Source: an uncultured Gammaproteobacteria bacterium (GTDB taxonomy: Bacteria > Patescibacteriota > Patescibacteriia > CAYZDG01). Taken from it: a stretch of 64,000 bases of DNA. Where the stretch lies: NCBI GenBank assembly GCA_964536515.1, contig CAZHXI010000001.1, positions 31,480-95,479 of the forward strand, read 5' to 3'. Positions within the stretch are counted from its first letter, which is position 1, and every line of letters starts with the position of its first letter. The notes beneath the pieces are model-generated. The model did not search any database and had not been told where the DNA came from. It saw nothing but the letters and a program-made list of their open reading frames with translations. The translations under genes and the position numbers were made by a program. Positions 2,201 to 34,196 of this stretch are shown in pieces.

Positions 2201-2755
2201 ATGCCCGGCTCGGCTCCGAATGCGTTCGTGCGGCGCTTTACCCAACCCGGGGTAGTGCTAGTCGCCGTCGCCCTCACCGGGGCCATGGGCCTGGTGGGTG
2301 GCTTTCGGCAGATCCGTTCGCAGATTCTAGATCCGTTCGCAATTCAATCTCCGACATCGAATGGGGCGGCTCCTGCAGCTGCGGTAGACACCGACGGCGA
2401 TGGCCTGAATGACGAGCTGGAGCTGCAGGCTTACGGCACCAGCCCCTACGTCGCAGACACCGACTCCGACGGCGTCTCTGATGGCAACGAGGTTGCGGCC
2501 GGCACCAGCCCAACCTGCGCCGCGGGCACTAGCTGCGACCCCCTGACGGTAACCGGGGGGTCATCCGCTGCGGCTACGACAACCCCCCAGGCGGGTTCAC
2601 CCACGGCAACGGCTCCGGCAGACGCAACCCCCGAGCAGCTGCGCCAGCTGCTGGTGCAGGCTGGCCTAGATAGCGCGCAGGTGAACAGCTTAACCGACGA
2701 GGAGCTAGCCGCTGCCTGGCAGGCGGCGGTGCAGCAGGCGGGCGGCGCCCAGTAG
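2201..2755 (+). CDS. Secreted/membrane-anchored Ca-binding protein with thrombospondin type-3-like Asp-rich repeats
   Basis: N-terminal hydrophobic segment (VVLVAVALTGAMGLVGG), then DTDGDGLNDELE…DTDSDGVSDGNE repeats and a Thr/Ala-rich tail. Start chosen at ATG 2201 right after the promoter; the track ORF begins at 2105. Confidence 0.55.
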   Translation: MPGSAPNAFVRRFTQPGVVLVAVALTGAMGLVGGFRQIRSQILDPFAIQSPTSNGAAPAAAVDTDGDGLNDELELQAYGTSPYVADTDSDGVSDGNEVAAGTSPTCAAGTSCDPLTVTGGSSAAATTTPQAGSPTATAPADATPEQLRQLLVQAGLDSAQVNSLTDEELAAAWQAAVQQAGGAQ

Positions 2756-2756
2756 T

Positions 2757-5700
2757 ATGGAGCGGCGACGATTGAGCGGCTTGATCCTGGGGACGCTGGT
2801 AGCAGCTGCACTGCTCGGCACAACCCTCATAGCTACGGTCAGCGTAGCCAGGCTGCGAGAGCGGGCGTTCGCCGCCGTTGGTTTCGGTGGAACTGGAGCA
2901 ATTCTGAAGACGATCACGCAGGGTTCCGGAGCCGCAATTGCCACGCCAGGATTCCCCGTCGTTGCAGACCCGGGTGTACGTACGCAGAACTTCTTAAGCT
3001 CGCTGGGCGATGCGATTGGCTCGGCGCTTGAGAGCAGCGGCAAGCTGCTGGTGAAGAATACGCTGTCGCGCTTCTTGGGTGAGCTGGCGCGCGGCACGGC
3101 GGAGTGGATTGCTACCGGCAGCCCGGGCCAGATGCCGCTGTTCGAGACGCAGGGTGGGTACGAGTTCATGGCGGCGACGCGTGACGCGGCTACCGCAGAG
3201 TTCCTAGATAGCCTGGGCAGCGCCTACGGCGTAGACGTGTGTAACCCCGAGCTCGGCGCCAAGCTGGTCATCCACTACAGCAGCCTGCCGTCTAGCCGTC
3301 TGGATACCCCCCGCTGCTCCCTGAAGCAAATTCAGGAGAACTGGGCTGAGCTGCTGCCGAATAACCAGGCCTTCCTGCAGCGGTTCAGCGCCGCACTGGA
3401 GCCAGACCAGAACGACCTGGGCATTGCGCTGACCCTGGAGAAGAAGCTGGTGGTAGAGCGCGAGACCAAGGCGAACGCCGCCATTCTGGAGCGGCTAGAG
3501 TCGCAGGGCCTCAAGCCCCTGAAGGACCTCGCCGGTAATATTGTGACCCCGGCGGCGGCGGTGAACGAGCAGATACGTCAGACCCTAGGCTTGAGCGCGC
3601 AGAAGGAGCTGTCGTTCATCGGCGACCCGGTGGCGGATGCCATTGGCATATTCACCAACACCCTGGGCAACAGGCTTCGAGAGAAGTGGCTGAAGCAGGG
3701 CTTCGTGAACATTGCCGACGTATTCAATCGCACCGGCAGCAGCGGCGGCCTGTTCGGCGGAGCCGGGCGCTACAGCGTGGCCGAGCCCCGGTTCGCTGCG
3801 CTGGCCGGTTTGGAGCTGGGAACCTCGGGATCAATCGACGTCGTCGGCGAGCTGTCTGCGTGCTCGGACCCCGCAGACCCGGGGTTCGGCAACCAGTGCG
3901 TGCTCGACCCCTCCTTCGCGCAGGCGGTGCAGCAGCAGCTGACGGTACGCGAGGCAATGGAGCGCGGCTTGCTACGGGGTGAGTGGGCGTTCGGCTACCT
4001 GCAGGACGGCAGCGAGCCTCGCTACGGCACCGGCTACCCGTACTCGGCAATGGTCGTCATGCGCACCAAGCGCATCGTTCCGGTCGGCTGGGAGCTGGCG
4101 GCGCAGGCAGCCAAGGCATTCGGGCAGGGCGTTACCTTGGACCACGTGCTGCACTGCTACGAAGATCCTGCGGCCGCCGGCGATGGATCGCGTCCGGTGG
4201 ACTGCCAGATTAACGGCATTAACCCGTTCTACCACCTGGTAGACCCCAACTGGCTGCTCAAGGTTCCGGCCACGTACTGCGTGCGGCGCGGCGCCAGCGC
4301 CGAGCTGCTAACCGAGGAGTACATCTGCAACCAGGACACGAACGGCGATAGCTTCGTGGACTGCGTGAACCTAGATTCGAACATCAACGGCATTGCCGCT
4401 CCGGTCGATGGGGATCCGAGCTCCAAGGATGAGTACCTCAGGGTGATCCAACGGGCCGAGTACTGCGCCGACGAGCAGAGCTGCATCGCCGAGAACGCCG
4501 ATGGTACCTGCCGCGCCTACGGCTACTGCTTCGAGGAGAAGCAGACCTTCAGCCTGGGGGACAATGCCTGCCCGTCGCAGTTCGCCTCGTGCGTGGGCGT
4601 AACCACGCCCAGCGGGCAGCAGACCGCCTACATCCAGGACAGCGTGCAGACCTGCCCCACCGGAGCCGCTGGCTGCCAGTGGTACAGCCGTCGCAAGAGC
4701 GGCGCCAACTGGAGCGTCGCCCCCACCGACCGCATCTACCTCAACTCCGAGGCGGCAACCTGCAGCCCCGACGACGCCGGCTGCCGCAAGCTGCTGCGCT
4801 TCGGCCAGGGCACCAACCTGGTACCCAACGGCGGCTTCGAACAGTACGACCGCCACCTGCCCAGCGATCCGAATGGCACAGATAACTTCTTCATCAACGG
4901 CGGCACGGCACGTGGACGGGCCTACACCAACGCGGCCGATGTGTACGAGGGGCAGGCATCGTTCCGCCTGACGCGGTCCGGTAGCATCAGCGTGCTGGCC
5001 GAAACGGGCAGCGAGGTAGCGGGCCGAACCTTTACCGCCTCGGTTGCCAGCAAGAACTGCACCGCCGGTTCGCTGTCGCTGCTGGACGGCGACGGGGGAG
5101 CCATTGGTGCTCCGGTCAACCTGCAGATTAGCGGGCCCGACACAGACAACGGCCAGTGGCACACCGCTACTATTACCGGCACCACGCAGGCGCCGGGCAC
5201 CAGCCTTACGGTGCAGGTTACCGGCCTCAATGCCTCGGTGGATTCCGACTGCCTGCTGGACTCGCTCGCCCTGACCGAGGGTTCGGCGAGGGCTACGCTG
5301 GCCTACGGCGCCGGACGTTCGGTGCACATTAGCAGCCGAGCCACGCAGTGCAGCCAGGACGACGTGGGCTGCCAGGCCTTCGTGCCGACGAGCGGCGACC
5401 CCACCGTGTTCGGCCGTATTACCGCCAACGATTACTGCCCGGCGCAGTGCGTGGGCTACCAGAACTACAGCCCCCTCATCAACACCTTCGAGGAGCGCGA
5501 GGGTGCGTCCGCCCCGGCGCCGTCTAACTTCATTCCCTCTACCGCACGCAGCTGCAGCGCCGTTGACGTGGGCTGCAGCGAGTTCACCAGCCTGGCAGAG
5601 GTGCCGGAAGGCGGCGAGCGGGTAGCCTACTTCAGCCAGGTGCAGCAGTGCGTGCCCGAGGCGACGCCGAGCGTGGGTACCTACTACACCTGGGAGGGCA

Positions 5701-8700
5701 GCGATACCGCCGGCTACCAGCTGCGCGTCTGGCAGCTGCTGCGTACCAATATCTCGGGGCCCCTGGCGCCGTGCACCAACCTCAGCTTAGACCCATCCAT
5801 TCAGCCGCCGGTCTGCTTGGATACGGCAGAAAACCGGGCGACCTGCGACCTGAATGCCGGTAACCCCGACTGCCGCGAGGTATTCGACTCCAATGCCACC
5901 AGCCACGGCGTGCTGTGGAGCCGCGTGGTGCAGGCGACGAACGACTGCCAGCAGTACCGTCGCACCGGCACCGACTTCGTGTACAACGTTTCGCCCCGAC
6001 TGGCGCGGCGCTGCCCGGCTGCGGCCAACGGCTGCCGCCAGTACCGCGGCGCCACCGGCGGCAACACCCGTACCGTTCTTCTGGCGGACTTCGAGACGTC
6101 ATCCGCCGCTGGCTGGGGCGGCACGCGCGTGGCGCTGACAACCGAGGCTCTGCAGGTCGGCGGGCACTCGCTGCTCGCTCTGGGCGCCAGCGGCAGCGTT
6201 ACGTTGCGCCGCACCGAGCCGCTAGCCATGCGTCCGGGCCACCAGTACATGCTCACCGTGTGGGTGAAGGGCTCAGACCGAGACATTCCGGCCGGCAACG
6301 TAACCCTACGCGGGGGCCTGCGCCGCCTGCTGGGCGCCCTGGGTGCAACCCCGGCGTCTGCCCAGCCCGGGCCTGCCGAGAACCTGGTATTCAACGCCGG
6401 GCCTACGCCCATCGGCGGCGAGTGGCAGAGGCTACAGATCGGGCCGGTTACGCCCACCACGCAGGCGAGCACCATGACGTTCGATATCACCGTGGCTATC
6501 GGCGGCCTTCGCAGCGCCTACTTCGACAACATCCAGCTGAAGGAGGTAACCAGCGATACGTTCGTGGTGCAGAACTCGTGGGAGACGCCGCAGGCCTGCG
6601 ATAACCCACCCGGCCTACCCAACGGCACCGACTCTAACCCCCGCACCGAGCCCGGCGCCATGGTGGGCTGCAGCGCCTACCGCGTGGCTGGCCGCCAGGT
6701 AACGCTGAGGTCTTTCAATCGGCTGTGCGCCGAGCGCAACGTGGGCTGCCAGGCGTTCATGGATACGGCGAACTCTGCCTCGCCGTTCGCCCAGCGTTTC
6801 AACTCAACCTGCAGCCTGGGCGCCCCCGTAGCCACGCCCACCGTCTGTAGCTCGGACGGGTACCAGCGCTGCGTGGTGGGAGCCGGCGAGGCGAGCTGCC
6901 GCTACACCCAGACCTCTGACTACGACCCCAGCTCTGCCGCGGAGCCGCTGGTAGCCGACGAAGACCAGGTGCCGGTGCTCGGCGACCGGGTTACCTACCT
7001 GGTAGACGACCCTGCGGCGTACTGCAGCGCCGAGGTAGCCGGCTGCACCCAGCTGGGCTTGCCCCGCATCAACAAGCAGGCGTGGTCTGGCAGCGGCGCA
7101 GCCCCGGCCAACGGCATCGTCAGCTGGCAGGACGTGTACAAGGTGGCGAACCCAGACCAGTTCAGCCGCAGCCTGTGCAGCGTCGGCCAGCTGTGGTGCG
7201 CGGCGCACCGCGTCTCGGGCGGCGGCACGCTTACCTTCCGCGACCCGCAGGGCAGCCTGGCGGGGGAGAGCCGTACCTGCGAGTACCGCACGGGCGTGCA
7301 GATTGGCAGCCAGCTGGTTACGGGCTGGTTCCGTACCGGCACCGACGACGGCTGCCGCGCCACGTCTAACTACAGCCTGCCGCTCAACGGCGGCCCGGGC
7401 TACGACCGCTTCGTGGGCATCTGCCCGGCGCAGTACAGCGGCTGCACCAACTACCGTAACCCGCAGCCCAGCGCCACCGGCGGCGAGCGCGACAACTACT
7501 TCCTGCGCAGCAGCGTAGATAGCAGCTCGTGCAACGGCCTGGTAGATGTGGCCGGCGGCTGCATGCTGTTCCGCGACCCAGCCCAGCCGGCGCTGTACAG
7601 CTCACAGTACAGCTACCCGCCCTACCGGCTGCCGGGCCAGGCGCCGGTAGCAACCTCGACGCTAGATAGCAACGTGGTCCTAAAGGTGCGGCGCGACCGC
7701 AGCTGCAGCCAGTGGTACAGCTGCGGCAGCAGCGTGGCCGTGCCCGGCAGCCCCACGGGGCAGCGGGTGTGCACGTCGCTCACCAGCTGCACGCGGCTGA
7801 ACCCCGCCACCAACCAGTGCGACAACCCCGGCGGCGGATCGTTCCCCGTCGGCAGCGCCGGCTTCCCCAACGAGTTCACCTTCGCCAGCCCGGATGACAG
7901 CACGCGGTGGCGTAACCTCTCCGGCTACACCGTACCCGGCATCCAGTTCACCGGCGGCCCGGGCCTGGTGAGCCGCGGCTTCACCCCCTACAGCAACATG
8001 GAGCAGATTGGGCTCTCCGCTACGGTCTCGAACGGCGGGTTCGACGACGCGGCAGACAGCCTAGCCTCCACCGACGGCGTGGGCTGGCATAGCTGCGACT
8101 CCGGCGCCCCGGCGGTACCGGCAGCGCAGGCTTGCAGCTACGTGGTTTCAGCCAACAGGGTTCGCGAGGGACGCGCGGCGCTGCGCTTCAGCTCTACGGT
8201 CGGCGCCGTAACCACCCTGCGGCACGGCGTCGTGGCCGTGGCTCCGAACTCTACGTACGCCGTCAGCGTGCAGCTGAACACCGTAGACCTGCTCGCCGGC
8301 GACGTGGCGCTCGAGGTGCTGGATGGCGGCGGCACGGTACAGCTGCGTCTGCAGCAGGGCTCGGGCCAGGGCTGGCAGACGCTGCTGGGGCAGTTCACCG
8401 CTACCGGCAGCGTTACCCTACGCCTGGTCGCCTCGGCTGATGCCAGCGGCAGCGCCTACGTAGACGACGTGAAGATCGAGCCGGTGCTGCAGGTGAACGG
8501 CGAGCCGCGCTTCGTGGGCCAGCAGTGCCGCGTCTACCCGCGCGGCGACGCACCGTCGTGCCGTTACACCCAGGCAGACGGCGAGTACCGGGGCATCACG
8601 GGCTACTGCCTGCAGCCCGACCCCCGCGACCCCAGCCGCTGCATCCAGTGGTGGCCGGTGGACGTGGTAGCCGGCCAGTCGTTCGACGTCTTCGGCGAGA

Positions 8701-10415
8701 CCATTAGCCTGAGCGGCCGTACGCCCCTGCGCTACTGCACCGAGGCTGCGGGAAACGCCTACGACGACAACCGCGATGGCACGAAAGAGTACTGGCGCGA
8801 TGCGGGGGTAGACGCGAATATTGATGGCGGCGGCACCGGCGGGGAGATAAGGGCTGCGTGCAACCCAGACCCCCTGGCGGCGTCGCCCTCTAGTACAGAT
8901 GATGGCTGCACGCTGGCTGAGATGAGCTCCGGGTGGGCGGTGGAGGAGCTTTCGGGTATGCACCTCTGGAACGTTCACTGGAGCCAGGTCGCCCGCATTG
9001 TGGCAGACGGCGACTACAACGCCTGCAATAAGCACTACTCCGTAATGCCAGAGCTACGTGAGTACACGTTCGAGATGCACGAGCCAACTAGGTCCGTTAC
9101 GCGTTTCGGCTTCTGGACAGACTGGCAGAACGACAGCGAGGGTGAGACCTGGGCTTTCTTCGGCGTCGACCGCGGCAGCGGACTCATCAACTACTTCATC
9201 GGCTACGTCAACGATACGGCGGGCAGCGGCGAGGACTGCACCGTGGACTTCAAGATCGTCACCAAGGAGCAGTGCTCGGTCGTCGCCGAGGTTCGGGCAG
9301 ACGATACGCACACGGCGTGGTTCGACCGTTTCAACGGCGGCACCTACTCCGACGCTAGCTTGGTCCCCGCCAACGATGCCGCTCCCTACGGCGCCCTGCC
9401 GGCTAACGCCGCTGCAGACCTGATGGGTGCCACCTGCGATCCCGATATCCTGGCAGCTTCGGACTCGCTGAGTATCGATGAGGGCTGCGCGTTGCCCATC
9501 GGCAAGTTCGCCCTGCGGGCCAACGGCTCGCAGGCCGAGCGCGGCGGCACGCCGCTGGCCTGTCCCGTGGGCGGGTGCGCCGTGCCGCAGTGCACCCTCG
9601 ACCGAGCCAACAGCTGCGGCACCGCTGGCCAGACTACCGCCTGCTTCGATGCACTGGCTACGCCGGGAATCGGCTTCTGCTCCGGCAACCAGGTGCCCAG
9701 CGCAGCGAACGAGGGAACCAGGGTCGAGGGCGCCGTGCGCCTATCGCAGATGTTCGCCCGCAGCTACTACACCTGGACCCTAGACCCCGCCACCCACCGC
9801 TACCGCATCAACGACTGCCTTAACGACGATACGATTCAGGTAGCCATTGCCGCATCCCCCACCGGGGTAGACTCCGGCAGCGGTTGCTGGGACAGGCGCA
9901 AGCTGCTATCCACGCCAGATCCTGCCCCCACCACGCTCCGCCCGCGGGTACCCGAGATTAGCATCAACGGCAATTCCAGCGACACGCCCGAGGTGGCAGC
10001 CAGCGTGGGCGATACTGTGGAGCTGCGCTTCAGCTCGCTGCTGAACGCCGACCGCCTGCCGCTGCGCTTCATCCTGGTTGACTGGGGCGACGGCGAGCGG
10101 ACCGTTACCTCGCGGCTGAGCATCAACCACCAGCCGTCCGTGGCTAGCGGCCACCTGTTCACGCACACCTACTCTACCCGGCCGACCACGACCTGTGGGT
10201 CCGACTTCTGCGCCACCATTCGGGTGCAGATCGAGGACAACTGGGGCTTCTGCAACGGCGCACTCCCTGCGACGAGCTACAATATCAACAATGGCAACAT
10301 GAGCCTCAACCAGAGTGGCGCCGGCTGCTTCATTGGGAACGCCACCGATAGCCTCCGCTGGACCAGGGCAACCACTACCCTCCGCTTCTCCACCGCGGTA
10401 GAGGAAGACGTCTAG
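2757..10415 (+). CDS. Giant (2552 aa) Cys-rich cell-surface protein with CBM-like beta-sandwich modules and a C-terminal PKD-like domain
   Basis: N-terminal TM/signal (LILGTLVAAALLGTTLIATVSVA). More than 10 repeats of C-x(8-15)-[DN]-x-x-G-C-[QRST]-x-[FYL], e.g. DDAGCRKLL, DDVGCQAFVP, VDVGCSEFTS, RNVGCQAFMD. Three NGGFE/NGGFD-type carbohydrate-binding-like modules. VDWGDGE PKD-like motif near the C-terminus. Confidence 0.7.
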   Translation: MERRRLSGLILGTLVAAALLGTTLIATVSVARLRERAFAAVGFGGTGAILKTITQGSGAAIATPGFPVVADPGVRTQNFLSSLGDAIGSALESSGKLLVKNTLSRFLGELARGTAEWIATGSPGQMPLFETQGGYEFMAATRDAATAEFLDSLGSAYGVDVCNPELGAKLVIHYSSLPSSRLDTPRCSLKQIQENWAELLPNNQAFLQRFSAALEPDQNDLGIALTLEKKLVVERETKANAAILERLESQGLKPLKDLAGNIVTPAAAVNEQIRQTLGLSAQKELSFIGDPVADAIGIFTNTLGNRLREKWLKQGFVNIADVFNRTGSSGGLFGGAGRYSVAEPRFAALAGLELGTSGSIDVVGELSACSDPADPGFGNQCVLDPSFAQAVQQQLTVREAMERGLLRGEWAFGYLQDGSEPRYGTGYPYSAMVVMRTKRIVPVGWELAAQAAKAFGQGVTLDHVLHCYEDPAAAGDGSRPVDCQINGINPFYHLVDPNWLLKVPATYCVRRGASAELLTEEYICNQDTNGDSFVDCVNLDSNINGIAAPVDGDPSSKDEYLRVIQRAEYCADEQSCIAENADGTCRAYGYCFEEKQTFSLGDNACPSQFASCVGVTTPSGQQTAYIQDSVQTCPTGAAGCQWYSRRKSGANWSVAPTDRIYLNSEAATCSPDDAGCRKLLRFGQGTNLVPNGGFEQYDRHLPSDPNGTDNFFINGGTARGRAYTNAADVYEGQASFRLTRSGSISVLAETGSEVAGRTFTASVASKNCTAGSLSLLDGDGGAIGAPVNLQISGPDTDNGQWHTATITGTTQAPGTSLTVQVTGLNASVDSDCLLDSLALTEGSARATLAYGAGRSVHISSRATQCSQDDVGCQAFVPTSGDPTVFGRITANDYCPAQCVGYQNYSPLINTFEEREGASAPAPSNFIPSTARSCSAVDVGCSEFTSLAEVPEGGERVAYFSQVQQCVPEATPSVGTYYTWEGSDTAGYQLRVWQLLRTNISGPLAPCTNLSLDPSIQPPVCLDTAENRATCDLNAGNPDCREVFDSNATSHGVLWSRVVQATNDCQQYRRTGTDFVYNVSPRLARRCPAAANGCRQYRGATGGNTRTVLLADFETSSAAGWGGTRVALTTEALQVGGHSLLALGASGSVTLRRTEPLAMRPGHQYMLTVWVKGSDRDIPAGNVTLRGGLRRLLGALGATPASAQPGPAENLVFNAGPTPIGGEWQRLQIGPVTPTTQASTMTFDITVAIGGLRSAYFDNIQLKEVTSDTFVVQNSWETPQACDNPPGLPNGTDSNPRTEPGAMVGCSAYRVAGRQVTLRSFNRLCAERNVGCQAFMDTANSASPFAQRFNSTCSLGAPVATPTVCSSDGYQRCVVGAGEASCRYTQTSDYDPSSAAEPLVADEDQVPVLGDRVTYLVDDPAAYCSAEVAGCTQLGLPRINKQAWSGSGAAPANGIVSWQDVYKVANPDQFSRSLCSVGQLWCAAHRVSGGGTLTFRDPQGSLAGESRTCEYRTGVQIGSQLVTGWFRTGTDDGCRATSNYSLPLNGGPGYDRFVGICPAQYSGCTNYRNPQPSATGGERDNYFLRSSVDSSSCNGLVDVAGGCMLFRDPAQPALYSSQYSYPPYRLPGQAPVATSTLDSNVVLKVRRDRSCSQWYSCGSSVAVPGSPTGQRVCTSLTSCTRLNPATNQCDNPGGGSFPVGSAGFPNEFTFASPDDSTRWRNLSGYTVPGIQFTGGPGLVSRGFTPYSNMEQIGLSATVSNGGFDDAADSLASTDGVGWHSCDSGAPAVPAAQACSYVVSANRVREGRAALRFSSTVGAVTTLRHGVVAVAPNSTYAVSVQLNTVDLLAGDVALEVLDGGGTVQLRLQQGSGQGWQTLLGQFTATGSVTLRLVASADASGSAYVDDVKIEPVLQVNGEPRFVGQQCRVYPRGDAPSCRYTQADGEYRGITGYCLQPDPRDPSRCIQWWPVDVVAGQSFDVFGETISLSGRTPLRYCTEAAGNAYDDNRDGTKEYWRDAGVDANIDGGGTGGEIRAACNPDPLAASPSSTDDGCTLAEMSSGWAVEELSGMHLWNVHWSQVARIVADGDYNACNKHYSVMPELREYTFEMHEPTRSVTRFGFWTDWQNDSEGETWAFFGVDRGSGLINYFIGYVNDTAGSGEDCTVDFKIVTKEQCSVVAEVRADDTHTAWFDRFNGGTYSDASLVPANDAAPYGALPANAAADLMGATCDPDILAASDSLSIDEGCALPIGKFALRANGSQAERGGTPLACPVGGCAVPQCTLDRANSCGTAGQTTACFDALATPGIGFCSGNQVPSAANEGTRVEGAVRLSQMFARSYYTWTLDPATHRYRINDCLNDDTIQVAIAASPTGVDSGSGCWDRRKLLSTPDPAPTTLRPRVPEISINGNSSDTPEVAASVGDTVELRFSSLLNADRLPLRFILVDWGDGERTVTSRLSINHQPSVASGHLFTHTYSTRPTTTCGSDFCATIRVQIEDNWGFCNGALPATSYNINNGNMSLNQSGAGCFIGNATDSLRWTRATTTLRFSTAVEEDV

Positions 10416-10418: not shown

Positions 10419-13400
10419 ATGCTTCGTCTGCCATTGAATTTCAGCTCACCTCGCTTCGCCCGAGGCGTCGCGGTTGCGATGCTGGCCCTGGTCGCTATCG
10501 TAGCTGTGCCGGTGGCGTTGCCGGGCGGGGGAGTGAGCGATTCGGCGCCGGTGCGGTCGGCGATCGGCGTAGCTACGGTGCACGCGGTTACCGATACTGA
10601 TATTCAGATGCAGGCCGAAGCCAGGGAGGCAGCGGCGAACAAGACCGATAGTGACTCGTGGTTCACCCGGGTCATCAAGGAGCTGATGTACGCCATTATC
10701 CAGTTCTTCGGCTACATGACCGGGCTGCTGTTCAAGGTGCTAGAGATGATTGCCCAGTACAACGGGTTCACCACCGAGCCGATCGTGGTGAAGGGCTGGA
10801 CCATAGTCCGGGACGTCTGCAACATGTTCTTCGTCTTCGCCATGCTGCTCATTGCCTTCGGCACCATACTGCGCATCCAGGCCTACCACTACCGCAGCCT
10901 GCTGTTCAAGGTCGTGCTGATGGCGGTGCTCATGAACCTTTCTAAGTCTATCGTCGGCGTGCTCATAGACCTTTCGCAGATCGTAATGCTTTCGTTCGTG
11001 AGCGGGTTCAAGCACATGGTGGCGGGCAGCCTGGCCCAGGCCTTTGGCGTGGATAAGATACTAAGGTTGGTACCAACTGACTCCGGCACTAACGCTGTTA
11101 CCGCTGGGCAGGTGAACGATGCTCTGGGCGCAACCGGCGGCGACGGCGTGGTTGCCAGCGCGGGTACGCTGCTGGCGTCGTTCATTCTGGCTGCGCTCAT
11201 CATGGCTCTCATCTTCATTACCGTTCTAGCCATTACGGTGCAGCTCATAGTACGTGTGATAAAGCTATGGATTCTCACCATCATGGCGCCCATCGCCTTC
11301 GCCGGAACCCTGTTCAAGGGCCTGGGCTCAATGGCCGGCAAGTGGTGGGACGAGCTGACCAAGGAGCTGGTGGCCGGCCCCACGCTGATGTTCTTCCTCT
11401 GGCTGGTGCTGGCTATTAGCTCGGCTAACAGCGGCGAGGTGTTCGGCGCCGGCAGCCATGCGGCCGGCTCGTTCAACCCGCTGAACCTGGAGGCTGCCAG
11501 CGCCGGGAACCTAGTGAACCTGTTCGTGGTAGTGGGCTTGCTGTGGGCCGGCTTGGGAGCAGCCAAGGCGGGCGGTACCGCCGCCGCAGGCGCGGTAGGC
11601 TTCGGCCTGGGCAAGCTATCGAGCATCAGCCGCGGCTCTGCTCGCCTGGCGGGGAAGGGGGCAGCGGGCGTGGGCCGCTTCGGCCAGCGCTGGGCTGCGC
11701 AGGGCCTGTCTAAGAGCGGTATCCAGGCGCGCTACGAGATGGCCAAGGAAGGCATTCGAGAGTCTACCGCTGGCAAAGCGGTGCGCTTCTTTGGCAAGGA
11801 GGCTACCGAGCAGCGTTGGGCTGCCCGTAAGGCGATACGTCGGGAGCGCATTCTGACGCACATGGATACCGCGGCGAAGTCCGCAGACCTCGCGGGCCAG
11901 CCGATTGGGTGGATTCAGTCTGCCCGCCGTAAGCGTGAGCAAAAGTGGCGCGTCGAGTCTAACGTGGCTACCGCCAAGTACATGAAGGAGCTAGACGAGC
12001 AGGGGATCAACGACAATGCCAGCATTAGGGCGGCGCTGGCTTCCAATATGAAGGACGGCAAGGTGCAGAACGTAGATAAGCAGGCGGCGCTGCTGCGCCA
12101 GCTGGCGAGCAAGGGCAAGGTTCTGGATGCTAATCGCGACATTATCGAGAACACGGCGGGTATGTCGGATGGCTCCCGTGCCGCGCTGCTCGCTGCCTTC
12201 AAGGACCACGACACCAGCGCCATTAAGAGCGACGGCAGCATCCGTTCCGACGCCGAGGTAATGGAGGAGATGGAGTCGGCCATGAAGGGCGACGCCGATC
12301 GCGGCGCCAAGAACAAGAGGGTACGCGGCATTGCTGCCAAGGTCCGTGTGGACGAGAGGGGCCAGGTTGCCAACTCGACAGCCATCGCGACCCTCCGCAA
12401 CCTGGATGAGGACTACATTGAGCCGCTCGATAAGAAGCTGAAGGACGATATTAAGGGGGCTATCCTGCTGACGATCCACAACGCCAACCAGAGTGGCGAC
12501 ACCCAGCTGCGGGATGAAATGGAGAAGAAGTACAATCAGCTGTTCGCCCAGGGAACCGACAAGCAGGGCAACGCCCTCCCCAAGCTTGAGCTAGACAAGG
12601 ATACCGGACAGGTGAAGGACGACGCCATGCGTGCCGTGCAGCAGAAGGCTGCACGCAAGCAGGAGCGTGACCAGATCAAGGAGGTCAGCATGAAGCGTGA
12701 TAGCCTGGTACCCCTAGATGAGGGCGAGAAGGCGCTGCAGAAGCTGGTAGCCGCCATTGATGGCGCTCCAAAGAAAATTGAAGAGCTAAGGACTAAACTT
12801 GCGGAGCTATCAACCATCGACACGTCAACGAAGGCGGGACGTGGTTGGCATAAGCAGGCTACCATCGACGTAGCTCGCATACAGAAGGAGCTCGTCGACG
12901 GCGCTGAAAAACAAACAAAGGATGAGAATGGAAATCGAAAACCTGAGTTTGTCTACCGTGGCAACGACGGCTCGGTGATCGATCCTGGCGTCCTAGTCAA
13001 TCGAATGCTTGGTGGTAACCTTGAGTCTAGGCTCGATGCTGTCCGTGAGGATGTAGCTTGGAGCAGGGCTCAGCCCGATGATTCTAAGCGTCTCGCGTCT
13101 GATCAATTGCAGGTAATCTCTGCTCGATTCAACCGCATTCATAAGGTGGCTCCCCCGAAGGGTCCAGCATCGGCAGGTAGCCCGTCAGGTCGAGCGACTG
13201 ATACAAGGTACCTCGCCGGAGAGTTCGTCCAGCCACGGCAGGCGGTGAGTAGCATCGCCGATCCTTTGGTCAGTAAGGCACAGGGGGCGGTGAGGCAGGC
13301 ATTCCAGCAGATCGATCAGGGCCAGCGCGTAGCGAAGCTGGAGCCGGTGCTTAAGGAGGTGCAGGGTGCGATAAAGCAGATGCTGACTATTGATAAGCTC

Positions 13401-13535
13401 GACGAGGTTCAGAAGGGTGCGCTCACCGATATAGCAAAGGAGGCTGAAGATCTGAGCGGCAAGCTCGCTACCGCATCCGAGGCGGATGTATCAGCGATTG
13501 TCACCAAGATCAGCAAGCTGAAGAACCTAGCCTAG
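10419..13535 (+). CDS. VirB6/TrbL-like polytopic membrane protein with a ~600 aa charged coiled-coil-like C-terminal extension
   Basis: Signal/TM, then 6 or more hydrophobic helices (FFVFAMLLIAFGTIL, LIMALIFITVLAITVQLIV, etc.), then a long K/E/D/A-rich hydrophilic tail. Immediately follows the giant protein (stop, 3 nt, ATG). Confidence 0.55.
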   Translation: MLRLPLNFSSPRFARGVAVAMLALVAIVAVPVALPGGGVSDSAPVRSAIGVATVHAVTDTDIQMQAEAREAAANKTDSDSWFTRVIKELMYAIIQFFGYMTGLLFKVLEMIAQYNGFTTEPIVVKGWTIVRDVCNMFFVFAMLLIAFGTILRIQAYHYRSLLFKVVLMAVLMNLSKSIVGVLIDLSQIVMLSFVSGFKHMVAGSLAQAFGVDKILRLVPTDSGTNAVTAGQVNDALGATGGDGVVASAGTLLASFILAALIMALIFITVLAITVQLIVRVIKLWILTIMAPIAFAGTLFKGLGSMAGKWWDELTKELVAGPTLMFFLWLVLAISSANSGEVFGAGSHAAGSFNPLNLEAASAGNLVNLFVVVGLLWAGLGAAKAGGTAAAGAVGFGLGKLSSISRGSARLAGKGAAGVGRFGQRWAAQGLSKSGIQARYEMAKEGIRESTAGKAVRFFGKEATEQRWAARKAIRRERILTHMDTAAKSADLAGQPIGWIQSARRKREQKWRVESNVATAKYMKELDEQGINDNASIRAALASNMKDGKVQNVDKQAALLRQLASKGKVLDANRDIIENTAGMSDGSRAALLAAFKDHDTSAIKSDGSIRSDAEVMEEMESAMKGDADRGAKNKRVRGIAAKVRVDERGQVANSTAIATLRNLDEDYIEPLDKKLKDDIKGAILLTIHNANQSGDTQLRDEMEKKYNQLFAQGTDKQGNALPKLELDKDTGQVKDDAMRAVQQKAARKQERDQIKEVSMKRDSLVPLDEGEKALQKLVAAIDGAPKKIEELRTKLAELSTIDTSTKAGRGWHKQATIDVARIQKELVDGAEKQTKDENGNRKPEFVYRGNDGSVIDPGVLVNRMLGGNLESRLDAVREDVAWSRAQPDDSKRLASDQLQVISARFNRIHKVAPPKGPASAGSPSGRATDTRYLAGEFVQPRQAVSSIADPLVSKAQGAVRQAFQQIDQGQRVAKLEPVLKEVQGAIKQMLTIDKLDEVQKGALTDIAKEAEDLSGKLATASEADVSAIVTKISKLKNLA

Positions 13536-13536: not shown

Positions 13537-14340
13537 ATGTCCGTAGACCGCGCCACCGTAGATGCTGCCCGAGCTGCCGCCGCCAGCGCCATTGCCGCGG
13601 CAGGGGTAGACGAGTCGCAGCGTGCCGCTGCGGCCGCGGCTTGCGATACGGTGCTGTGGGGCATTACCCCGTACGCCGAGCTGGCCAGCTACCTGCAGGA
13701 GGCAGCCAAGCTGCCGCCGCCCGTAGCCGAGGCTCTGGCTAGGCGGCTGGATGTCTCCGCTAAGCCAGCCTGGGAGCAGGTTTGGGCGGGCCTAGACCAG
13801 CAGCAGCGCCACTGGAACAAGCAGGACCTCTCCGAAGACTACGCTAGCTTCGCCGCAGACCTAGACGCCGAGGTGGCCGAGGCGGCGCCGGAGCTGGCGC
13901 AGCAGCCTTCGGTTACGCCGCTGCTAGCCGAGCTGCTGGACGGCGGCGACAGGTACGACGCCACGGCGCTGCTAGCCTGGCTGGCGCAGCAGGGTAGGCT
14001 CGTGGGCGTGTGCATGCAGGACCGTGACATTCGTGAGGACTTCACCGAGTGGGTTACGGGCGCTCTGGGCGGGGGACAGGGCAAGCCCGCCATCGTCATT
14101 CCGGGGCCAGACCAGTGGAGCGCTCCGCTGACGGCGCTGCTGCTGCAGTACCTGCTGGAGGTGCGGCTGGGCTGGAACGCCGAGCAGTCTGCCATGGCCG
14201 CCATGTACCTGGCGCAGCAGCTGGCCAAGGCCAGCGGCGAGCACCGCTACGCTACCGCCGTGTACGGCGACGAGGCTACGGGCGAATTCCGCTGGCGGCC
14301 GGTGCGGCTGGAGAACGGCCAGGTCGTGTTCGCGGATTGA
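13537..14340 (+). CDS. Hypothetical acidic Ala-rich protein (secretion-locus associated)
   Basis: 267 aa ORF starting 1 nt after the previous stop. No recognisable motifs. Confidence 0.45.
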   Translation: MSVDRATVDAARAAAASAIAAAGVDESQRAAAAAACDTVLWGITPYAELASYLQEAAKLPPPVAEALARRLDVSAKPAWEQVWAGLDQQQRHWNKQDLSEDYASFAADLDAEVAEAAPELAQQPSVTPLLAELLDGGDRYDATALLAWLAQQGRLVGVCMQDRDIREDFTEWVTGALGGGQGKPAIVIPGPDQWSAPLTALLLQYLLEVRLGWNAEQSAMAAMYLAQQLAKASGEHRYATAVYGDEATGEFRWRPVRLENGQVVFAD

Positions 14341-16364: not shown

Positions 16365-16533
16365 GCGATTCTATGGTTACCTCGCCCGTGGGGGAGAGGA
16401 TCTGTCTCCCCGGTAAAGCCCAGGGTAGGCAGATATGGATAACGTTTGTGGCTGGAAATTACACGGGAATCGCCTCTCCGTCAAGGACGGTTCATGGGGG
16501 CGTGGTCCCGTGGGGCAATGGCCATTTGCGTCG

Positions 16534-16564
16534 CGTAGAGACGGGTTTAAAACCCGTCTCTACG
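16534..16564. repeat. Palindromic repeat family copy 2 (GTAGAGACG-GGTTTAAAACC-CGTCTCTAC)
   Basis: 31-nt near-perfect palindrome in the divergent intergenic region between rpsF(-) and the methyltransferase(+). Confidence 0.7.
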
Positions 16565-16603
16565 ACGTTTGGTACATTCGGCAACGTTTGTTATGGTGCC
16601 CCC

Positions 16604-17803
16604 ATGAACCGATACGTATTCCTCCTGGGCCGGGAGGCTGCCCTGGGCGCAGCCGAGGTAATTGCTACCGGCCGCTTCTCATCTATCGATGCTGCTGCCA
16701 GCGGCGGCGAGGTTCTAGTTGCCTCTACAGATACTGCCCTGGAGAACCCCCAGGCCTTCTTGGACCGTATCGGCGGGACGGTGAAGCTAGCAGGGGTTGT
16801 TTCGGAGGTCGAGGGACAGCCGTCTCTGGAAGACCTGCTAGCCCTGCTACCCGGCGAGGGCAAGGTTCACTTCGGCATCAGCTGGTACGGCGGGCAGGTG
16901 CCGGACCTAGAGAAACTGGGGCGCCAGATGAAGGCGGCGCTGCAGGCGCAAGATCGCTCCGCCCGTTTCGTCAGCAGCCGCAGTAACCCGCTGTCCTCCG
17001 TCATCGTGCGGACGCAGAAGCTGCTGGGCGCGAGGGGATGTGAAATCATAGTGGCAATCCTTAACGGTGGTGACGTAGGGTCGAGGCGCGCCTCGACCCT
17101 ACTGGGCCGGACCATCGCTGCACAAAATTTTATTGAGTACGGCCGGCGTGATGCCGGACGCCCCAGCCGCAACATCAACCGCGGCATGCTGCCGCCCAAG
17201 GTGGCGCAGGTGCTGCTGAATTTGGCGCAGGTTAAGCCGGGCGACACGGTGCTGGATCCGTTCTGCGGCACGGGCACGGTGCTGCAGGAGGCGCTGGTAA
17301 TGGGTGCCGGCAAGGCTATCGGCCGTGACGTAGATGACGACGCGGTGGAGGAGGCCACCGAGAACCTTTCGTGGCTGCCACGCCGCGCCCAGGTAGCGGG
17401 TACGTGGGAGGTCTACCGCCACGACGCACGCCAGGCCGACCGTAAGCTGCAGGATGGATCCATCGATGCGGTGGTAACCGAGCCGCTGCTGGGGCCGCTG
17501 CGGCCGCCGCGCCAGCACGAGGCGGTGGTCAAGCTGGTGGGGGAGCTGCAGCAGCTGTACCGGGCGTCGTTCGTGGCTGCGGCGGCCGCCCTAAAGCCCG
17601 GCGGCCGGCTGGTGGCCGTGCTGCCCGTGATCGGCGAGGTTTCCTCTGCCGACCTGGGTGGGCTGCCCGGCCTGAGCTCCGTCAGCCTGCTGCCCCAGGA
17701 CCTAGCCGCAAGGTTCGGCATCGACGTTGGCCAGCGATTGGTGTACCGCCGCCCCGGCCAGGCCGTAGGCCGCGCGGTGGTGGTTTTTGAAAAAAACCTG
17801 TAG
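16604..17803 (+). CDS. SAM-dependent RNA methyltransferase (Trm11/RlmL-like N2-G/N6-A family)
   Basis: DPFCGTGTVLQEALVMGAG SAM-binding motif I and a downstream VVTEPLLGPL (D/N-PPY-like) region. Start at ATG 16604; the track ORF from 16373 runs through the palindromic repeat. Confidence 0.55.
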   Translation: MNRYVFLLGREAALGAAEVIATGRFSSIDAAASGGEVLVASTDTALENPQAFLDRIGGTVKLAGVVSEVEGQPSLEDLLALLPGEGKVHFGISWYGGQVPDLEKLGRQMKAALQAQDRSARFVSSRSNPLSSVIVRTQKLLGARGCEIIVAILNGGDVGSRRASTLLGRTIAAQNFIEYGRRDAGRPSRNINRGMLPPKVAQVLLNLAQVKPGDTVLDPFCGTGTVLQEALVMGAGKAIGRDVDDDAVEEATENLSWLPRRAQVAGTWEVYRHDARQADRKLQDGSIDAVVTEPLLGPLRPPRQHEAVVKLVGELQQLYRASFVAAAAALKPGGRLVAVLPVIGEVSSADLGGLPGLSSVSLLPQDLAARFGIDVGQRLVYRRPGQAVGRAVVVFEKNL

Positions 17804-17909: not shown

Positions 17910-19004
17910 ATGCCTACCGAGAATGCCGCGAAAGAGCAGCCGGCGAGCGTGGCGCCCGCGTCATCGCTGGGCGTGGTCGTGAGGGGCAGCGACGGCAGCT
18001 TCCGCGTGTGGCAGGACGGCGAGTGGCGGCTGCTGGCCGCGGCTCCCGTGGTAGCGGCGCCGTCTAAGCCGACGTTCGGCGGCCCCAATGCCGCTAGCTA
18101 CTTCAGCGCAGCCGACGAGCAGGAGGCCCGCCGCCTAGCCCAGCGCCTAGATACCGCTCCCGAGCACAAGCGCTACTCCCTCGCGAAGATTATTGGGCAG
18201 GTGCAGGAGAGGGCTAAGGTGAGCATTGCCGGGCCTGCGGCGGACGCCTTCCGCCGTGCCGTGCTCACCTTCCTGCGGGGTACCCGGGGGCCGGTAGACT
18301 TCGGCGCCGTGCTGGTGCGTCCGGCTGACCAGGGCGGCGTGGGGCTGACGTCCGCTGAGTCGCAGGCGCTGGTGGCAATACTCTCCGTCATAGGCGACAA
18401 GGTCCGCGCCGAGGGCGGCGAGGTGGTGGATGACCCGGCGTTGAATCCGCCGGCCGCGGCGCCCGTGCCGCCGAAGCCGTCGGTCAAACCCGACGTAGAG
18501 ACGAGGCGCGCCTCGTCTCTACCGCCCGCGTCACCAACCCCCGTCGCACCCGTGCCGCCGCGGCCGATTGCGCCCCCTCTGCCCCGTCCCGCGGTTCCCC
18601 TGACGCCGCTCGCCAAGCCCCAGGCGGTGAACGACGTTCGTCCGGCTGCTCCAGCCGCGCGGGTAGCTCCACCCCGCCGCCTGGTTGGGCCGGTGGACGA
18701 GCTCCGCCAGATGGACATTGCCACCTTCCGTACGCTCGGCGCTACGCCGGCAGACCAGGCGAACGCCGTCGTGGCCAAGGTGCAGGCGCTCGGCCGGGAG
18801 TCGCTCACCCGGCACGCCGAGGGCCTGGCAGCCTGGCGTGAGTGCCCCGTGTACACCGCGTACCGCGCCATCGGCCTGCAGAGCATCCAGGGGGGCAAGC
18901 CCGTGGCCCAGGTCGTCGCCGAGCTGTTCCGTGACGGCAAGGCTACGCTGACCGAGGCTGAGTTCAACGCCGTGGCCGACGCCAACCGCCGGCTTCGCCT
19001 CTAG
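17910..19004 (+). CDS. Hypothetical protein with a central Pro-rich linker (secretion-locus associated)
   Basis: 364 aa; PAPVPPKPSVKP…PVAPVPPRPIAPPLPRPAVPLTPLAKP linker. Contains an in-frame copy of the palindromic repeat (encodes DVETRRASSLPP). Confidence 0.5.
   Translation: MPTENAAKEQPASVAPASSLGVVVRGSDGSFRVWQDGEWRLLAAAPVVAAPSKPTFGGPNAASYFSAADEQEARRLAQRLDTAPEHKRYSLAKIIGQVQERAKVSIAGPAADAFRRAVLTFLRGTRGPVDFGAVLVRPADQGGVGLTSAESQALVAILSVIGDKVRAEGGEVVDDPALNPPAAAPVPPKPSVKPDVETRRASSLPPASPTPVAPVPPRPIAPPLPRPAVPLTPLAKPQAVNDVRPAAPAARVAPPRRLVGPVDELRQMDIATFRTLGATPADQANAVVAKVQALGRESLTRHAEGLAAWRECPVYTAYRAIGLQSIQGGKPVAQVVAELFRDGKATLTEAEFNAVADANRRLRL
18495..18522. repeat. Palindromic repeat family copy 4, located inside a CDS
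   Basis: GTAGAGACGAGGCGCGCCTCGTCTCTAC, a 28-nt perfect palindrome within the Pro-rich linker of the 17910..19004 ORF. Confidence 0.7.
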
Positions 19005-19009: not shown

Positions 19010-19483
19010 ATGGCCCAGCTGCAGCACTTCGTCGTCCCCCAGTTCATAGATATCGAGAGCAAGATTCTGGGGCCCATTACCACCCGGCAGTTCCTGTGGG
19101 TGCTGGGCGCCGGGCTCATTTTCTTCATCGCCCTGCGCACGCTGCCGGTGCCGGCCTTCATTGCCGTAGCGGTGCTGGATGTAGCCGTGTTCGGCAGCTT
19201 CGCCTTCGTGAAGGTGAACGGCCAGCTCTTCCATAACTTCCTGGTCAGCGCCATTGCCTTCGGGCGGCGGCCGAGGCTGTACCTATGGACCGCCGGGGTA
19301 GAGGATGACGGAGTTTCCGTTGCCGCCGTCAGCCCGGCGGAGGCGGTGGGCCAGCGTCCGCTGATTCCCGCCGGCAGGCTGAACGAGCTGGCGCTGCTGG
19401 TAGACACCGGCGGCACCTACCAGGCCGTGACCGCATTCAAGGAAATACCGCCTATCCCCGAAGACCATGTCCCCCAAGCCTAA
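19010..19483 (+). CDS. Small two-TM membrane protein, PrgI/VirB3-like position upstream of VirB4
   Basis: 157 aa; hydrophobic hairpin FLWVLGAGLIFFIALRTLPVPAFIAVAVLDVAVFGSFAFV. Gene-order analogy to Gram-positive T4SS (PrgI then PrgJ). Confidence 0.45.
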   Translation: MAQLQHFVVPQFIDIESKILGPITTRQFLWVLGAGLIFFIALRTLPVPAFIAVAVLDVAVFGSFAFVKVNGQLFHNFLVSAIAFGRRPRLYLWTAGVEDDGVSVAAVSPAEAVGQRPLIPAGRLNELALLVDTGGTYQAVTAFKEIPPIPEDHVPQA

Positions 19484-20141
19484 GCTAAAGAGGGCTCCTG
19501 CTGCCGCCGCGCTGCCGTTCTCGTACCTGCGCGAGGGCAGCGTCATCATGCGAGACGGCAGCCTGCGCGCGGTGCTGCTGGCGTCGTCCATAAACTTCTA
19601 CCTGAAGTCTGAGACCGAGCAGAACGCTATCGTCAGCGGCTACATCGGCTTCCTCAACACGCTCAGCTTCCCGCTGCAGATCGTCATTCAGTCGCGCCGG
19701 CTGAACATAGACGGCTACCTGGCGCAGCTCGAGACTCTGGAGCGGCAGCAGACCAACGAGCTGCTGCGGCTGCAGACGGCAGACTACCGGCAGTTCGTTA
19801 AGGAGCTTCTGGAGCTGGAGGATATTATGACCAAGCGCTTCTACGTGGTCGTGCCCTACGACCCGGCGGGGGATAAGACGCGCGGCTTCATCAGCCGGCT
19901 GACATCTGCCTTCTCGGCGCCGGCTGCGGTGGCGCTGCGCGAGGAGAAGTTCCGTCGGGCCTCGGAGGAGCTATCCAAGCGGGTGGCGCTGGTGCAGAGC
20001 GGCCTGGGCCAGATCGGCATAACCACGGCGGCGCTCGACACCCCCAGCTTGATAGAGCTGTACTACCGAACCTACAACCAGGAGGTAGCCGACGTGCAGC
20101 CGCTGTCGGCCGTCGGTAAGCTGCAGGTAGATGCTTCGTAG
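19467..20141 (+). CDS. Hypothetical protein, possibly the N-terminal domain of a split VirB4-like ATPase
   Basis: 224 aa; overlaps the upstream gene by 17 nt and the downstream VirB4-like gene by 11 nt out of frame. Combined 224+637 aa approximates full-length VirB4 size. Confidence 0.45.
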   Translation: MSPKPKLKRAPAAAALPFSYLREGSVIMRDGSLRAVLLASSINFYLKSETEQNAIVSGYIGFLNTLSFPLQIVIQSRRLNIDGYLAQLETLERQQTNELLRLQTADYRQFVKELLELEDIMTKRFYVVVPYDPAGDKTRGFISRLTSAFSAPAAVALREEKFRRASEELSKRVALVQSGLGQIGITTAALDTPSLIELYYRTYNQEVADVQPLSAVGKLQVDAS

Positions 20142-23084: not shown

Positions 23085-23120
23085 CGAGACGGCGCTCGGG
23101 CTTTACGCTACACTAATTCC

Positions 23121-34106: not shown

Positions 34107-34107
34107 G

Positions 34108-34173: not shown

Positions 34174-34196
34174 TCTGTTTCCTGTATTCTACCTGC

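Follow-up and report, generated by a model that had tools for sequence, protein, structure and literature searches.

An unnamed family of giant, putatively disulfide-stapled proteins at the head of a type IV secretion locus in Patescibacteria

Introduction

A large part of bacterial diversity consists of Patescibacteria, whose cells live attached to others. In Saccharibacteria, the Patescibacteria type IV secretion system (T4SS) is essential for epibiotic growth, and it is the first T4SS on which the growth of its own carrier was shown to depend (PMC12857230). The locus described here raises the question of what role a giant Cys-containing protein, encoded beside such a system, might play. It lies in a stretch of 64,000 nucleotides (hereafter the window; positions 31,480 to 95,479 of contig CAZHXI010000001.1, assembly GCA_964536515.1). 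A sequence-only reading of the window had noticed a giant gene at 2757-10415 with a short Cys motif, and had proposed that its product is an extracellular, disulfide-stabilised, carbohydrate-binding fibre that may be the contact or adhesion component of a secretion-like system. The observation was confirmed once the motif had been corrected, and the interpretation is partly supported, "fibre" and "adhesion" being terms that we infer from the evidence given below.

As judged from sequence, the giant protein is real, conserved and extracytoplasmic, and its gene is part of a conserved module that heads a Patescibacteria T4SS locus. Our preferred interpretation, to which we assign a probability of roughly 50%, is that the protein is an N-terminally anchored, disulfide-stapled stalk that carries variable lectin modules and acts as the host-contact or adhesin component of this T4SS. 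The interest of the family lies mainly in this link to the T4SS.

The giant protein carries ten invariant C-x6-C motifs

The open reading frame (ORF) on the forward strand at 2757-10415 is intact, running from an ATG at 2757 to a stop codon that ends at 10415, and it encodes 2552 amino acids (aa), as the sequence-only reading had stated. Cys accounts for 84 of these residues (3.3%). An identical protein is already deposited in public collections without a name. All five peptides that had been quoted as examples of the motif are present in the protein; the pattern drawn from them, C-x(8-15)-[DN]-x-x-G-C-[QR]-x-[FY], fails on these same examples, and the real Cys spacing is x6. The unit is thus C-x6-C, a pair of Cys always seven positions apart (for example CSQDDVGC), set in the consensus [YF]-[LIV]-x5-6-C-[SP]-A-x-x-[VA]-G-C-x-x-[YF], which is shared across sites and species (229 instances pooled). 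Eight of the ten canonical copies have a Gly before the second Cys together with an aromatic residue or Leu three residues past it. Two long-loop variants, C1281-x23-C1305 and C1592-x9-C1602, keep the "GC-x-x-aromatic" half of the motif, and the earlier count of more than ten copies stands only if these two are added to the ten canonical ones. The Cys elements of the protein are as follows.

4464-4529 (+): four-Cys cluster CADEQSC-x8-C-x5-C, aa 570-591; C570, C576, C585 and C591 invariant
4569-4592 (+): C-x6-C motif 1, CPSQFASC, aa 605-612; a weak copy without the Gly
4653-4676 (+): C-x6-C motif 2, CPTGAAGC, aa 633-640
4761-4784 (+): C-x6-C motif 3, CSPDDAGC, aa 669-676; directly ahead of jelly-roll module 1
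5349-5372 (+): C-x6-C motif 4, CSQDDVGC, aa 865-872
5553-5576 (+): C-x6-C motif 5, CSAVDVGC, aa 933-940; within the middle domain
6012-6035 (+): C-x6-C motif 6, CPAAANGC, aa 1086-1093; in the middle domain, directly ahead of jelly-roll module 2
6597-6680 (+): long-loop variant C1281-x23-C1305, then S-A-Y1308; C1281, C1305 and Y1308 invariant; partial match to the motif model
6726-6749 (+): C-x6-C motif 7, CAERNVGC, aa 1324-1331
7023-7046 (+): C-x6-C motif 8, CSAEVAGC, aa 1423-1430
7176-7199 (+): C-x6-C motif 9, CSVGQLWC, aa 1474-1481; without the Gly
7422-7445 (+): C-x6-C motif 10, CPAQYSGC, aa 1556-1563
7530-7571 (+): 9-residue-loop variant CNGLVDVAGGCMLF, aa 1592-1605; C1592 and C1602 kept in at least 90% of members; partial match to the motif model

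The chance frequency of the motif was estimated from 5000 shuffles of the giant protein. The pattern C-x5-GC-x2-[FYLW], observed 8 times, occurred 0.046 times on average and at most twice in the shuffled sequences, and C-x6-C, observed 10 times, occurred 2.7 times on average; counts so far above expectation indicate that the motif is real. The copies are irregularly spaced, 28-153 aa apart, and the recurring part spans just about 25-30 residues. When the three larger Cys-rich regions were aligned with each other, hhalign gave probabilities of only 10-18% over 30-50 columns, so nothing larger than this unit is repeated. A repeated domain was thereby ruled out, the Cys-rich regions being mutually non-homologous and the short motif alone recurring; the word "repeat" used earlier is apt for the motif and not for any domain. 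None of the other ORFs in the window contains the motif, according to a scan with its hidden Markov model (HMM).

The motif belongs to one large family of Patescibacteria

A protein search returned 23 homologues of 1490-4149 aa, of which four are full-length relatives with 47-73% identity and the others show 26-31% identity. Those with names come from Patescibacteria or Magasanikbacteria (the latter for protein P0015), and many carry a precomputed match to CBM_4_9, a family of carbohydrate-binding modules (CBMs). The sequence-only reading had made its motif depend on a conserved Cys spacing; in the alignment of the 23 homologues (27-76% identity to the window protein), all 20 motif Cys, and with them all ten pairs, form invariant columns, as do several flanking Gly and aromatic residues.

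An HMM built from 137 motif instances (34 positions) was searched exhaustively against 1.84 billion representatives, as had been suggested along with the motif, and it matched 1209 protein clusters at E≤1e-3; of these, 1038 reached E≤1e-10 and 251 reached E≤1e-30. The best 150 of the 1209 matches have 8-12 copies each (mostly 9-12), are mostly 1.5-4 thousand aa long and all belong to a single, large Patescibacteria family, which indicates that the motif is a family-bound element rather than a mobile domain. A role as a mobile element of other families is ruled out among the matches listed, and within the same scope C-x6-C is, by its sequence distribution, a structural element of fixed number and fixed position in one orthologous family.

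Relatives were found in 478 genomes of a one-genome-per-species collection, whose records name Patescibacteria, Komeili-, Falkow-, Kerfeld-, Buchanan- and Parcubacteria; no relative in this collection exceeds 36% identity to the window protein over the N-terminal domain. A search with the N-terminal 660 aa returned just three fragments.

Known profiles gave little to compare with this family. The sole match of the whole giant protein in a Pfam scan (E≤1) was DUF7907 at 14.5 bits, which is spurious; an NCBIfam scan gave nothing, and a PDB sequence search gave nothing meaningful. No Pfam or NCBIfam profile of the catalogued Cys-rich repeats (EGF-like, GCC2_GCC3, the Myxococcus Cys-rich repeat and others) matched the protein, so that the earlier description of the motif as unclassified holds, and no T4SS profile of either database matched, meaning that the protein is not a recognised T4SS component. 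Full-text literature searching found no description of the family or of the motif. The family is apparently large, unnamed and Patescibacteria-specific; the family is undescribed and its motif uncatalogued, while the kind of protein is a known one, namely that of the giant surface adhesin-like proteins of symbiotic ultrasmall bacteria. The C-x6-C staple and the N-terminal and middle domains described below are all absent from Pfam and NCBIfam, and defining them would improve the annotation of thousands of giant genes now called "hypothetical". Because the staples are fixed in number and position, they also provide a simple signature for recognising family members in fragmentary metagenomes.

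A conserved scaffold carries variable modules

The giant protein can be divided into the following parts.

2757-10415 (+): giant ORF, 2552 aa, 84 Cys
2772-2855 (+): N-terminal hydrophobic segment (Kyte-Doolittle), aa 6-33, with RRR before it; the sole such segment in the protein
2874-4436 (+): N-terminal domain, aa 40-560, mostly alpha-helical; no known fold matched
4806-5306 (+): jelly-roll module 1, CBM4/9-like, aa ~684-850, NGGFE start; variable in the family; pLDDT about 80-90
5436-6068 (+): middle domain, beta-rich, aa ~894-1104, holding motifs 5 and 6; pLDDT 85-93 in the AlphaFold2 (AF2) model
6069-6581 (+): jelly-roll module 2, CBM4/9-like, aa 1105-1275; from AF2 and Foldseek, and the Pfam match of homologue P0010
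8007-8471 (+): jelly-roll module 3, CBM4/9-like, aa 1751-1905, NGGFD start; from Pfam matches of orthologues
8472-9908 (+): variable distal region, aa 1906-2384, containing Cys; the fastest-diverging part among close relatives
9909-10412 (+): C-terminal domain, last 168 aa, with the motifs DWGDG...HxY...DNWG(W/F)CNG; kept at the C-terminus of most members

The hydrophobic segment at aa 6-33 is predicted to be either a signal anchor or a long signal peptide. An extracellular location, as had been proposed, is in line with this single N-terminal segment and the lack of any further transmembrane segment, a topology found in 116 of 123 full-length family members; an LPXTG signal or a C-terminal hydrophobic anchor was found in none of the 123. 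The Cys count is even in 93 of the 123. Together with the invariant Cys pairs at fixed spacing and a DsbA/MdbA-like gene in the window (see below), this makes the disulfides of the earlier proposal plausible.

The N-terminal domain occurs in 162 and the middle domain in 166 of the 168 family proteins that were examined. The model of the N-terminal domain has an overall predicted local distance difference test score (pLDDT) of 62, with a confident core at about aa 359-470 (pLDDT 88-96), in which R436, P442, G444, W445, E446 and an LVDPNW motif are invariant. Identity to the distant homologues averages 35% in both the first Cys region and the middle domain, which is thus among the most conserved parts; the N-terminal domain and the second Cys region average 26%, and values fall to 12-23% in the three jelly rolls and in the distal third (16% in module 1). 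The same division is seen among closer relatives: aa 1906-2384 are 47-51% identical to their counterparts in P0001-P0003 (65-73% identical overall), compared with 72-84% for the scaffold domains, and 36-40% identical to those in P0004, compared with 49-60% for the scaffold. By these sequence comparisons, the giant protein is a conserved scaffold that carries variable lectin-type and distal modules.

The sequence-only reading had named three CBM4/9-like modules, and structure prediction and orthologue matches together bear out all three. An AF2 model of aa 560-1300 (pLDDT 70.7) shows jelly rolls at about aa 689-844 and 1104-1274, with pLDDT of about 73-92. For both, Foldseek returned CBM4-2 (2y6k, 4bj0), CBM16 (2zew) and CBM22 (4xup) structures at a probability of 1.0, with target-normalised TM-scores (TMt) mostly of 0.5-0.7, so that modules 1 and 2 are predicted to adopt the beta jelly-roll (galactose-binding-like) fold of CBM_4_9. 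The two are homologous to each other (hhalign probability 97%). Three orthologues exceed the gathering cut-off of Pfam CBM_4_9 (PF02018; 25.9 bits), namely P0001 (29.2 bits) and P0004 (39.7 bits) at module 3 and P0010 (45.9 bits) at module 2, and it is through such homology, not directly, that the modules of the window protein may be assigned to CBM_4_9. The top Foldseek matches of the whole aa 560-1300 model, Elapor1 and reelin, were rejected as multi-domain artefacts, with TM-scores of 0.11-0.14 over the whole chains.

The same model gives a local structure for motifs 5 and 6. Both have the same DSSP pattern, in which the first Cys and one further residue precede a helical turn of three residues, and another single residue leads to Gly-Cys and a strand of five residues (model mf8dccb265c5c; motif 5 at model residues 374-386, pLDDT 84-88; motif 6 at 527-538, pLDDT 87-88). 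The paired Cys of each C-x6-C are predicted to form a local disulfide, which would help to make a long stalk rigid.

At the C-terminus, the VDWGDGE segment named in the sequence-only reading is present, and the PKD assignment attached to it was rejected at the HMM level, with no PKD match at E≤1 in the window protein or in any of 18 aligned C-terminal domains of the family. The resemblance lies in the motifs: WGDG, then HxY, then a D-N-W-G strand follow one another in the same order as in PKD domains (PF00801 / PF18911). The best match of the domain in a PDB sequence search was a designed Ig domain (8bl3), a weak one at E=1.4e-4. The domain is probably an Ig-like beta sandwich, PKD-like by motif alone.

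The giant gene heads a T4SS locus

The genes around the giant ORF that bear on its function are the following.

1238-2092: KsgA
2201-2755 (+): small membrane-anchored protein of TSP3 type (calcium-binding type), 184 aa; Pfam TSP3_bac, E=3.6e-10
10419-13535 (+): polytopic membrane protein, 1038 aa; about 6-8 transmembrane segments within the N-terminal 390 aa and a hydrophilic stretch of about 650 aa after them
19010-19483 (+): PrgI (VirB3-like) T4SS membrane protein; Pfam PrgI, 37.2 bits
19467-20141 (+): TraC-like (TrsD-type) homologue; by tblastn to the PF26593-annotated genes of distant loci L001-L003, with no direct Pfam match
20131-22044 (+): VirB4-type T4SS ATPase; Pfam P-loop_TraG (100.6 bits), AAA_10 and DUF87
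47746-48486 (-): membrane-anchored DsbA/MdbA-like oxidoreductase with an N-terminal transmembrane segment; Pfam Thioredoxin_4 (80.5 bits) and DSBA (63.9 bits)

In the window, KsgA, TSP3, the giant gene and the polytopic gene are followed by two unassigned genes that flank a methyltransferase, and then by PrgI, TraC-like and VirB4; past VirB4 come three ORFs (22057-24299) and a pilin-like/VanY gene. The window thus has a VirB4 within a cluster, with PrgI and a TraC-like gene adjoining it, as expected of a T4SS locus. Across 83 loci of the family, all of which contain the giant gene, KsgA is present in 64, a TSP3-like gene lies directly upstream in 76 and a homologue of the polytopic protein lies directly downstream in 56; the other loci, judged as a group, look too short to reach the last of these. 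The order KsgA, TSP3, giant, VirB6-like is kept across about 80 species. In the loci of two distant homologues (29-31% identity), it continues as KsgA, TSP3, giant, a ~1000-aa protein, a ~500-aa protein, PrgI, TraC-like and VirB4. The PrgI, TraC-like and VirB4 set is found in the window. Of the three distant loci that reach past the next gene of ~400-600 aa, two have it as well (L003, and L001/L002, which are one genomic region assembled twice) and the third, L084, does not have it there. The tie to a secretion-like system that had been proposed is thus borne out by a VirB6-like gene next downstream and a PrgI/TraC-like/VirB4 set beyond it, an arrangement that recurs in distant species.

The polytopic protein itself has no Pfam match, and a PDB sequence search with it gave nothing meaningful; by transmembrane scan its topology is VirB6-like. 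Its orthologues in L003 and L084 match TrbL/VirB6 in the same region at E=4e-4 and 2e-4 (20.7 and 21.6 bits), below the 25.9-bit cut-off. The product of 10419-13535 is probably an extended VirB6-like subunit that current profiles miss in this lineage, and its architecture fits the "extended VirB6" type (PMC12857230).

The TSP3-type protein counts 184 aa from the ATG at 2201, a start with which a gene caller agrees (the mechanical ORF begins at 2105). It has an N-terminal anchor, two thrombospondin-type-3 repeats and a C-x5-C pair (TCAAGTSC). Its position directly upstream of the giant gene in most loci suggests that it is a dedicated partner or chaperone of the giant protein.

The DsbA/MdbA-like protein is a candidate catalyst of the predicted disulfides. 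No VKOR partner was identified beside its gene, the neighbouring ORF (47047-47694) having no hydrophobic segments. The MdbA-like oxidoreductase family is enriched in bacteria of the candidate phyla radiation, where its proposed task is the oxidation of secreted proteins (10.1101/335083).

A proposed stalk for host contact and its alternatives

In our preferred interpretation, Sec would export the giant protein, and the one hydrophobic segment at its N-terminus would keep it in the membrane, as its sequence indicates. The helical N-terminal domain would stay near the membrane, probably touching the TSP3-type and VirB6-like proteins, as the invariant adjacency of their genes leads us to suppose. 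The remainder would form a long extracellular stalk of conserved beta-rich segments, each pinned by an eight-residue C-x6-C whose presumed disulfide closes one helical turn at the start of a strand. This stalk would bear the three CBM4/9-type jelly-roll lectin modules, the fast-evolving distal third and the putatively Ig-like terminal domain, and the variable modules could bind glycans or other polymers on the host surface, thereby providing the T4SS with a contact or mating-pair-type adhesin.

Several points weigh against this interpretation. The window protein has no match to Pfam CBM_4_9 at E≤1. Confident local structure covers two of the ten motifs, the other eight lying in low-confidence or unmodelled parts. 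The N-terminal domain, whose function is unassigned, could carry an activity that changes the picture. Finally, in the lineage of locus L084 the four-gene module (TSP3, giant, VirB6-like and a ~400-aa gene) has no PrgI and VirB4 after it, so the tie to the T4SS ATPase is not universal and the tightest association of the giant gene is with the VirB6-like gene.

This last association also underlies the alternative that survives best, which we nevertheless consider unlikely: that the giant stalk is a structural part of the T4SS, forming or sheathing a wall-spanning conduit, docked on the VirB6-like protein and with its jelly rolls bound to the cell's own wall or S-layer so as to keep the apparatus in position. 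The VirB6-like gene adjoins the giant gene in all 56 loci with a downstream homologue, the N-terminal domain and the Cys scaffold are conserved far beyond what would be expected of a pure host-range determinant, and monoderm T4SSs have no known wall-spanning structure (PMC12857230). On the other hand, the CBMs and the distal third diverge fast, which fits a changing external ligand better than the cell's own wall; no oligomerisation or channel-like features are predicted; and the conduit could be supplied by the VirB2-like pilin candidate of the window, itself below the Pfam threshold.

Less probable again is that the giant protein is a tethered polysaccharide-active enzyme, either a substitute for VirB1 or a degrader of the host wall, with a novel catalytic domain at the N-terminus and CBMs for targeting. 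CBM4/9-type modules are typically appended to glycoside hydrolases, and giant proteins of predatory bacteria are reportedly linked to cell-wall degradation. Charged residues, E446, D496 and R436 among them, are invariant in the N-terminal core, as might be the case in a catalytic domain, and VirB1 homologues are scarce near virB4 in most Patescibacteria classes (PMC12102498). Against this, Pfam, NCBIfam and PDB sequence searches revealed no hydrolase, lyase or peptidase family, the N-terminal model has neither a lysozyme-like nor any other enzyme fold, and a domain beside the membrane anchor is at the wrong end to reach the host wall. It is very improbable that the paired Cys serve, in place of structural disulfides, as metal ligands (for example with two motifs making a Cys4 site) or as redox-active thiols: the Cys are indeed invariant and always paired, and the motifs at aa 605, 633 and 669 lie just 28-36 residues apart, but the protein is extracytoplasmic in a genome with a DsbA/MdbA-type oxidase, the C-x6-C spacing is unlike the CxxC knuckle of zinc ribbons, motifs are often isolated with no partner pair close by (865, 1086, 1324), and in the two copies modelled with confidence just one helical turn, within one loop, separates the Cys.

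Returning to the stalk as a host-contact component, its bearing on the biology of these symbionts follows from where and how widely the family occurs. The giant protein is a concrete candidate, from sequence data, for a host-recognition component and a source of host-range determinants, because it is conserved, carries lectin-type modules, is encoded directly upstream of a VirB6-like gene in about 80 sampled species and is related to proteins of at least 478 species genomes and over 1000 sequence clusters. A possible, though doubtful, extension is that the missing extracellular, host-contacting part of the T4SS consists of the giant protein together with its TSP3-type partner and the extended VirB6-like protein, and that this part decides the choice of host and is needed for growth. 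If so, the Komeili-, Falkow-, Kerfeld-, Buchanan-, Magasanik- and Parcubacteria (as named in record titles) would possess a new kind of T4SS surface module, whose basis would be an N-terminal fold not seen before and a connector motif of a new, disulfide-stapled type.

Comparison with known surface proteins

The closest functional parallel is found in the surface proteins PrgB (aggregation substance), PrgA and PrgC of Gram-positive (MPF-FATA) conjugation systems, pCF10 for example, which are likewise large and encoded upstream of the VirB6/VirB3/VirB4-type genes of a monoderm T4SS. The role proposed for the giant protein, contact with target cells via a lectin-like domain on a stalk, resembles that of PrgB, a functional analogy only, and a contact or adhesin role of the giant protein would be analogous to, not homologous with, that of PrgB-type adhesins. 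The two have no sequence or Pfam relationship, and the giant protein is about twice the size. PrgB ends in an LPXTG sortase signal, whereas the giant family appears to be anchored N-terminally and has LPXTG in 0 of 123 members; the stalk of PrgB has Ig-like domains, whereas that of the giant protein would consist of Cys-stapled segments and CBM4/9 modules. A phylum-wide survey of Patescibacteria T4SSs detected no PrgB-type adhesin and makes no mention of a giant protein of this kind (PMC12102498).

The jelly-roll modules share the beta jelly roll of CBM4, CBM9, CBM16 and CBM22 and begin with NGGFE or NGGFD. They differ from typical CBM4/9 modules in that they are not joined to a recognisable glycoside hydrolase, and those of the window itself are under the Pfam reporting threshold. 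The C-terminal domain differs from PKD domains in having no match to a PKD model.

Other giant proteins of ultrasmall symbionts, the Cys-rich proteins of Peribacteria (PMC4736985) and the adhesins of Absconditicoccaceae (PMC13059738), are similar in that they are very large, exported and Cys-containing, according to the relevant passages of these reports, where attachment to other cells is proposed for both. The Peribacteria proteins are reported there to contain about 7% Cys and to resemble Myxococcus Cys-rich repeats (PMC4736985), whereas the giant family has about 3.3-3.6% Cys and a distinct C-x6-C unit. Linkage to a T4SS is not noted in the same passages of the two reports, and the giant family differs from both groups in its own conserved N-terminal and middle domains.

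Other features of the window

Several further features were noticed in and around the T4SS-like cluster. A methyltransferase of UPF0020/N6_N4 type (16373-17803, +) lies in it between the ORFs at 13537-14340 and 17910-19004, and a homologue (32% identity, E=1.6e-67) flanks the giant/VirB6-like module of L084 (22198-23391, -), an unrelated locus. The two ORFs could conceivably be halves of one gene split by the methyltransferase. The one at 17910-19004 aligns with just the C-terminal portion of the ~500-600-aa gene that other loci carry after the VirB6-like gene, which suggests that this gene may be rearranged in the window; the match of 13537-14340 is weak. Downstream of VirB4, the gene at 24280-25365 (+) encodes a protein of 361 aa with 14 Cys and several hydrophobic segments, in which a T4SS_pilin-like region (sub-threshold at 21.8 bits) is joined to a region like the D-Ala-D-Ala carboxypeptidase VanY; such a fusion of a pilin and a peptidoglycan peptidase beside T4SS genes is unusual.

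Further away, a second large putative surface protein of 1700 aa (56771-61873, +) has fn3, Ig-like (Rha78A_N, HYDIN/VesB-like, DUF1573) and Cep192_D4-like regions; this protein is not related to the giant family and lacks C-x6-C motif matches. Patescibacteria T4SS genes are often close to the replication origin (PMC12102498). ParA and ParB genes (33333-35069, +) lie about 10 kb from the T4SS-like cluster, and dnaA was not seen in the 64-kb window. The window belongs to a Patescibacteria genome, and it also encodes a DUF5671 protein, the T4SS_pilin-like protein and housekeeping genes.

The guanine-plus-cytosine (GC) content of the window, 64.7%, is the highest of 86 family loci (median 43.5%, range 31-66%), which points to an unusually GC-rich lineage of Patescibacteria. 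Many other loci (L004, L006, L007, L010, L012 and others) are titled "uncultured Gammaproteobacteria bacterium" and have 33-48% GC and a Patescibacteria-type gene order; the "uncultured Gammaproteobacteria" labels of these metagenome-assembled genome records look like placeholders or misassignments.

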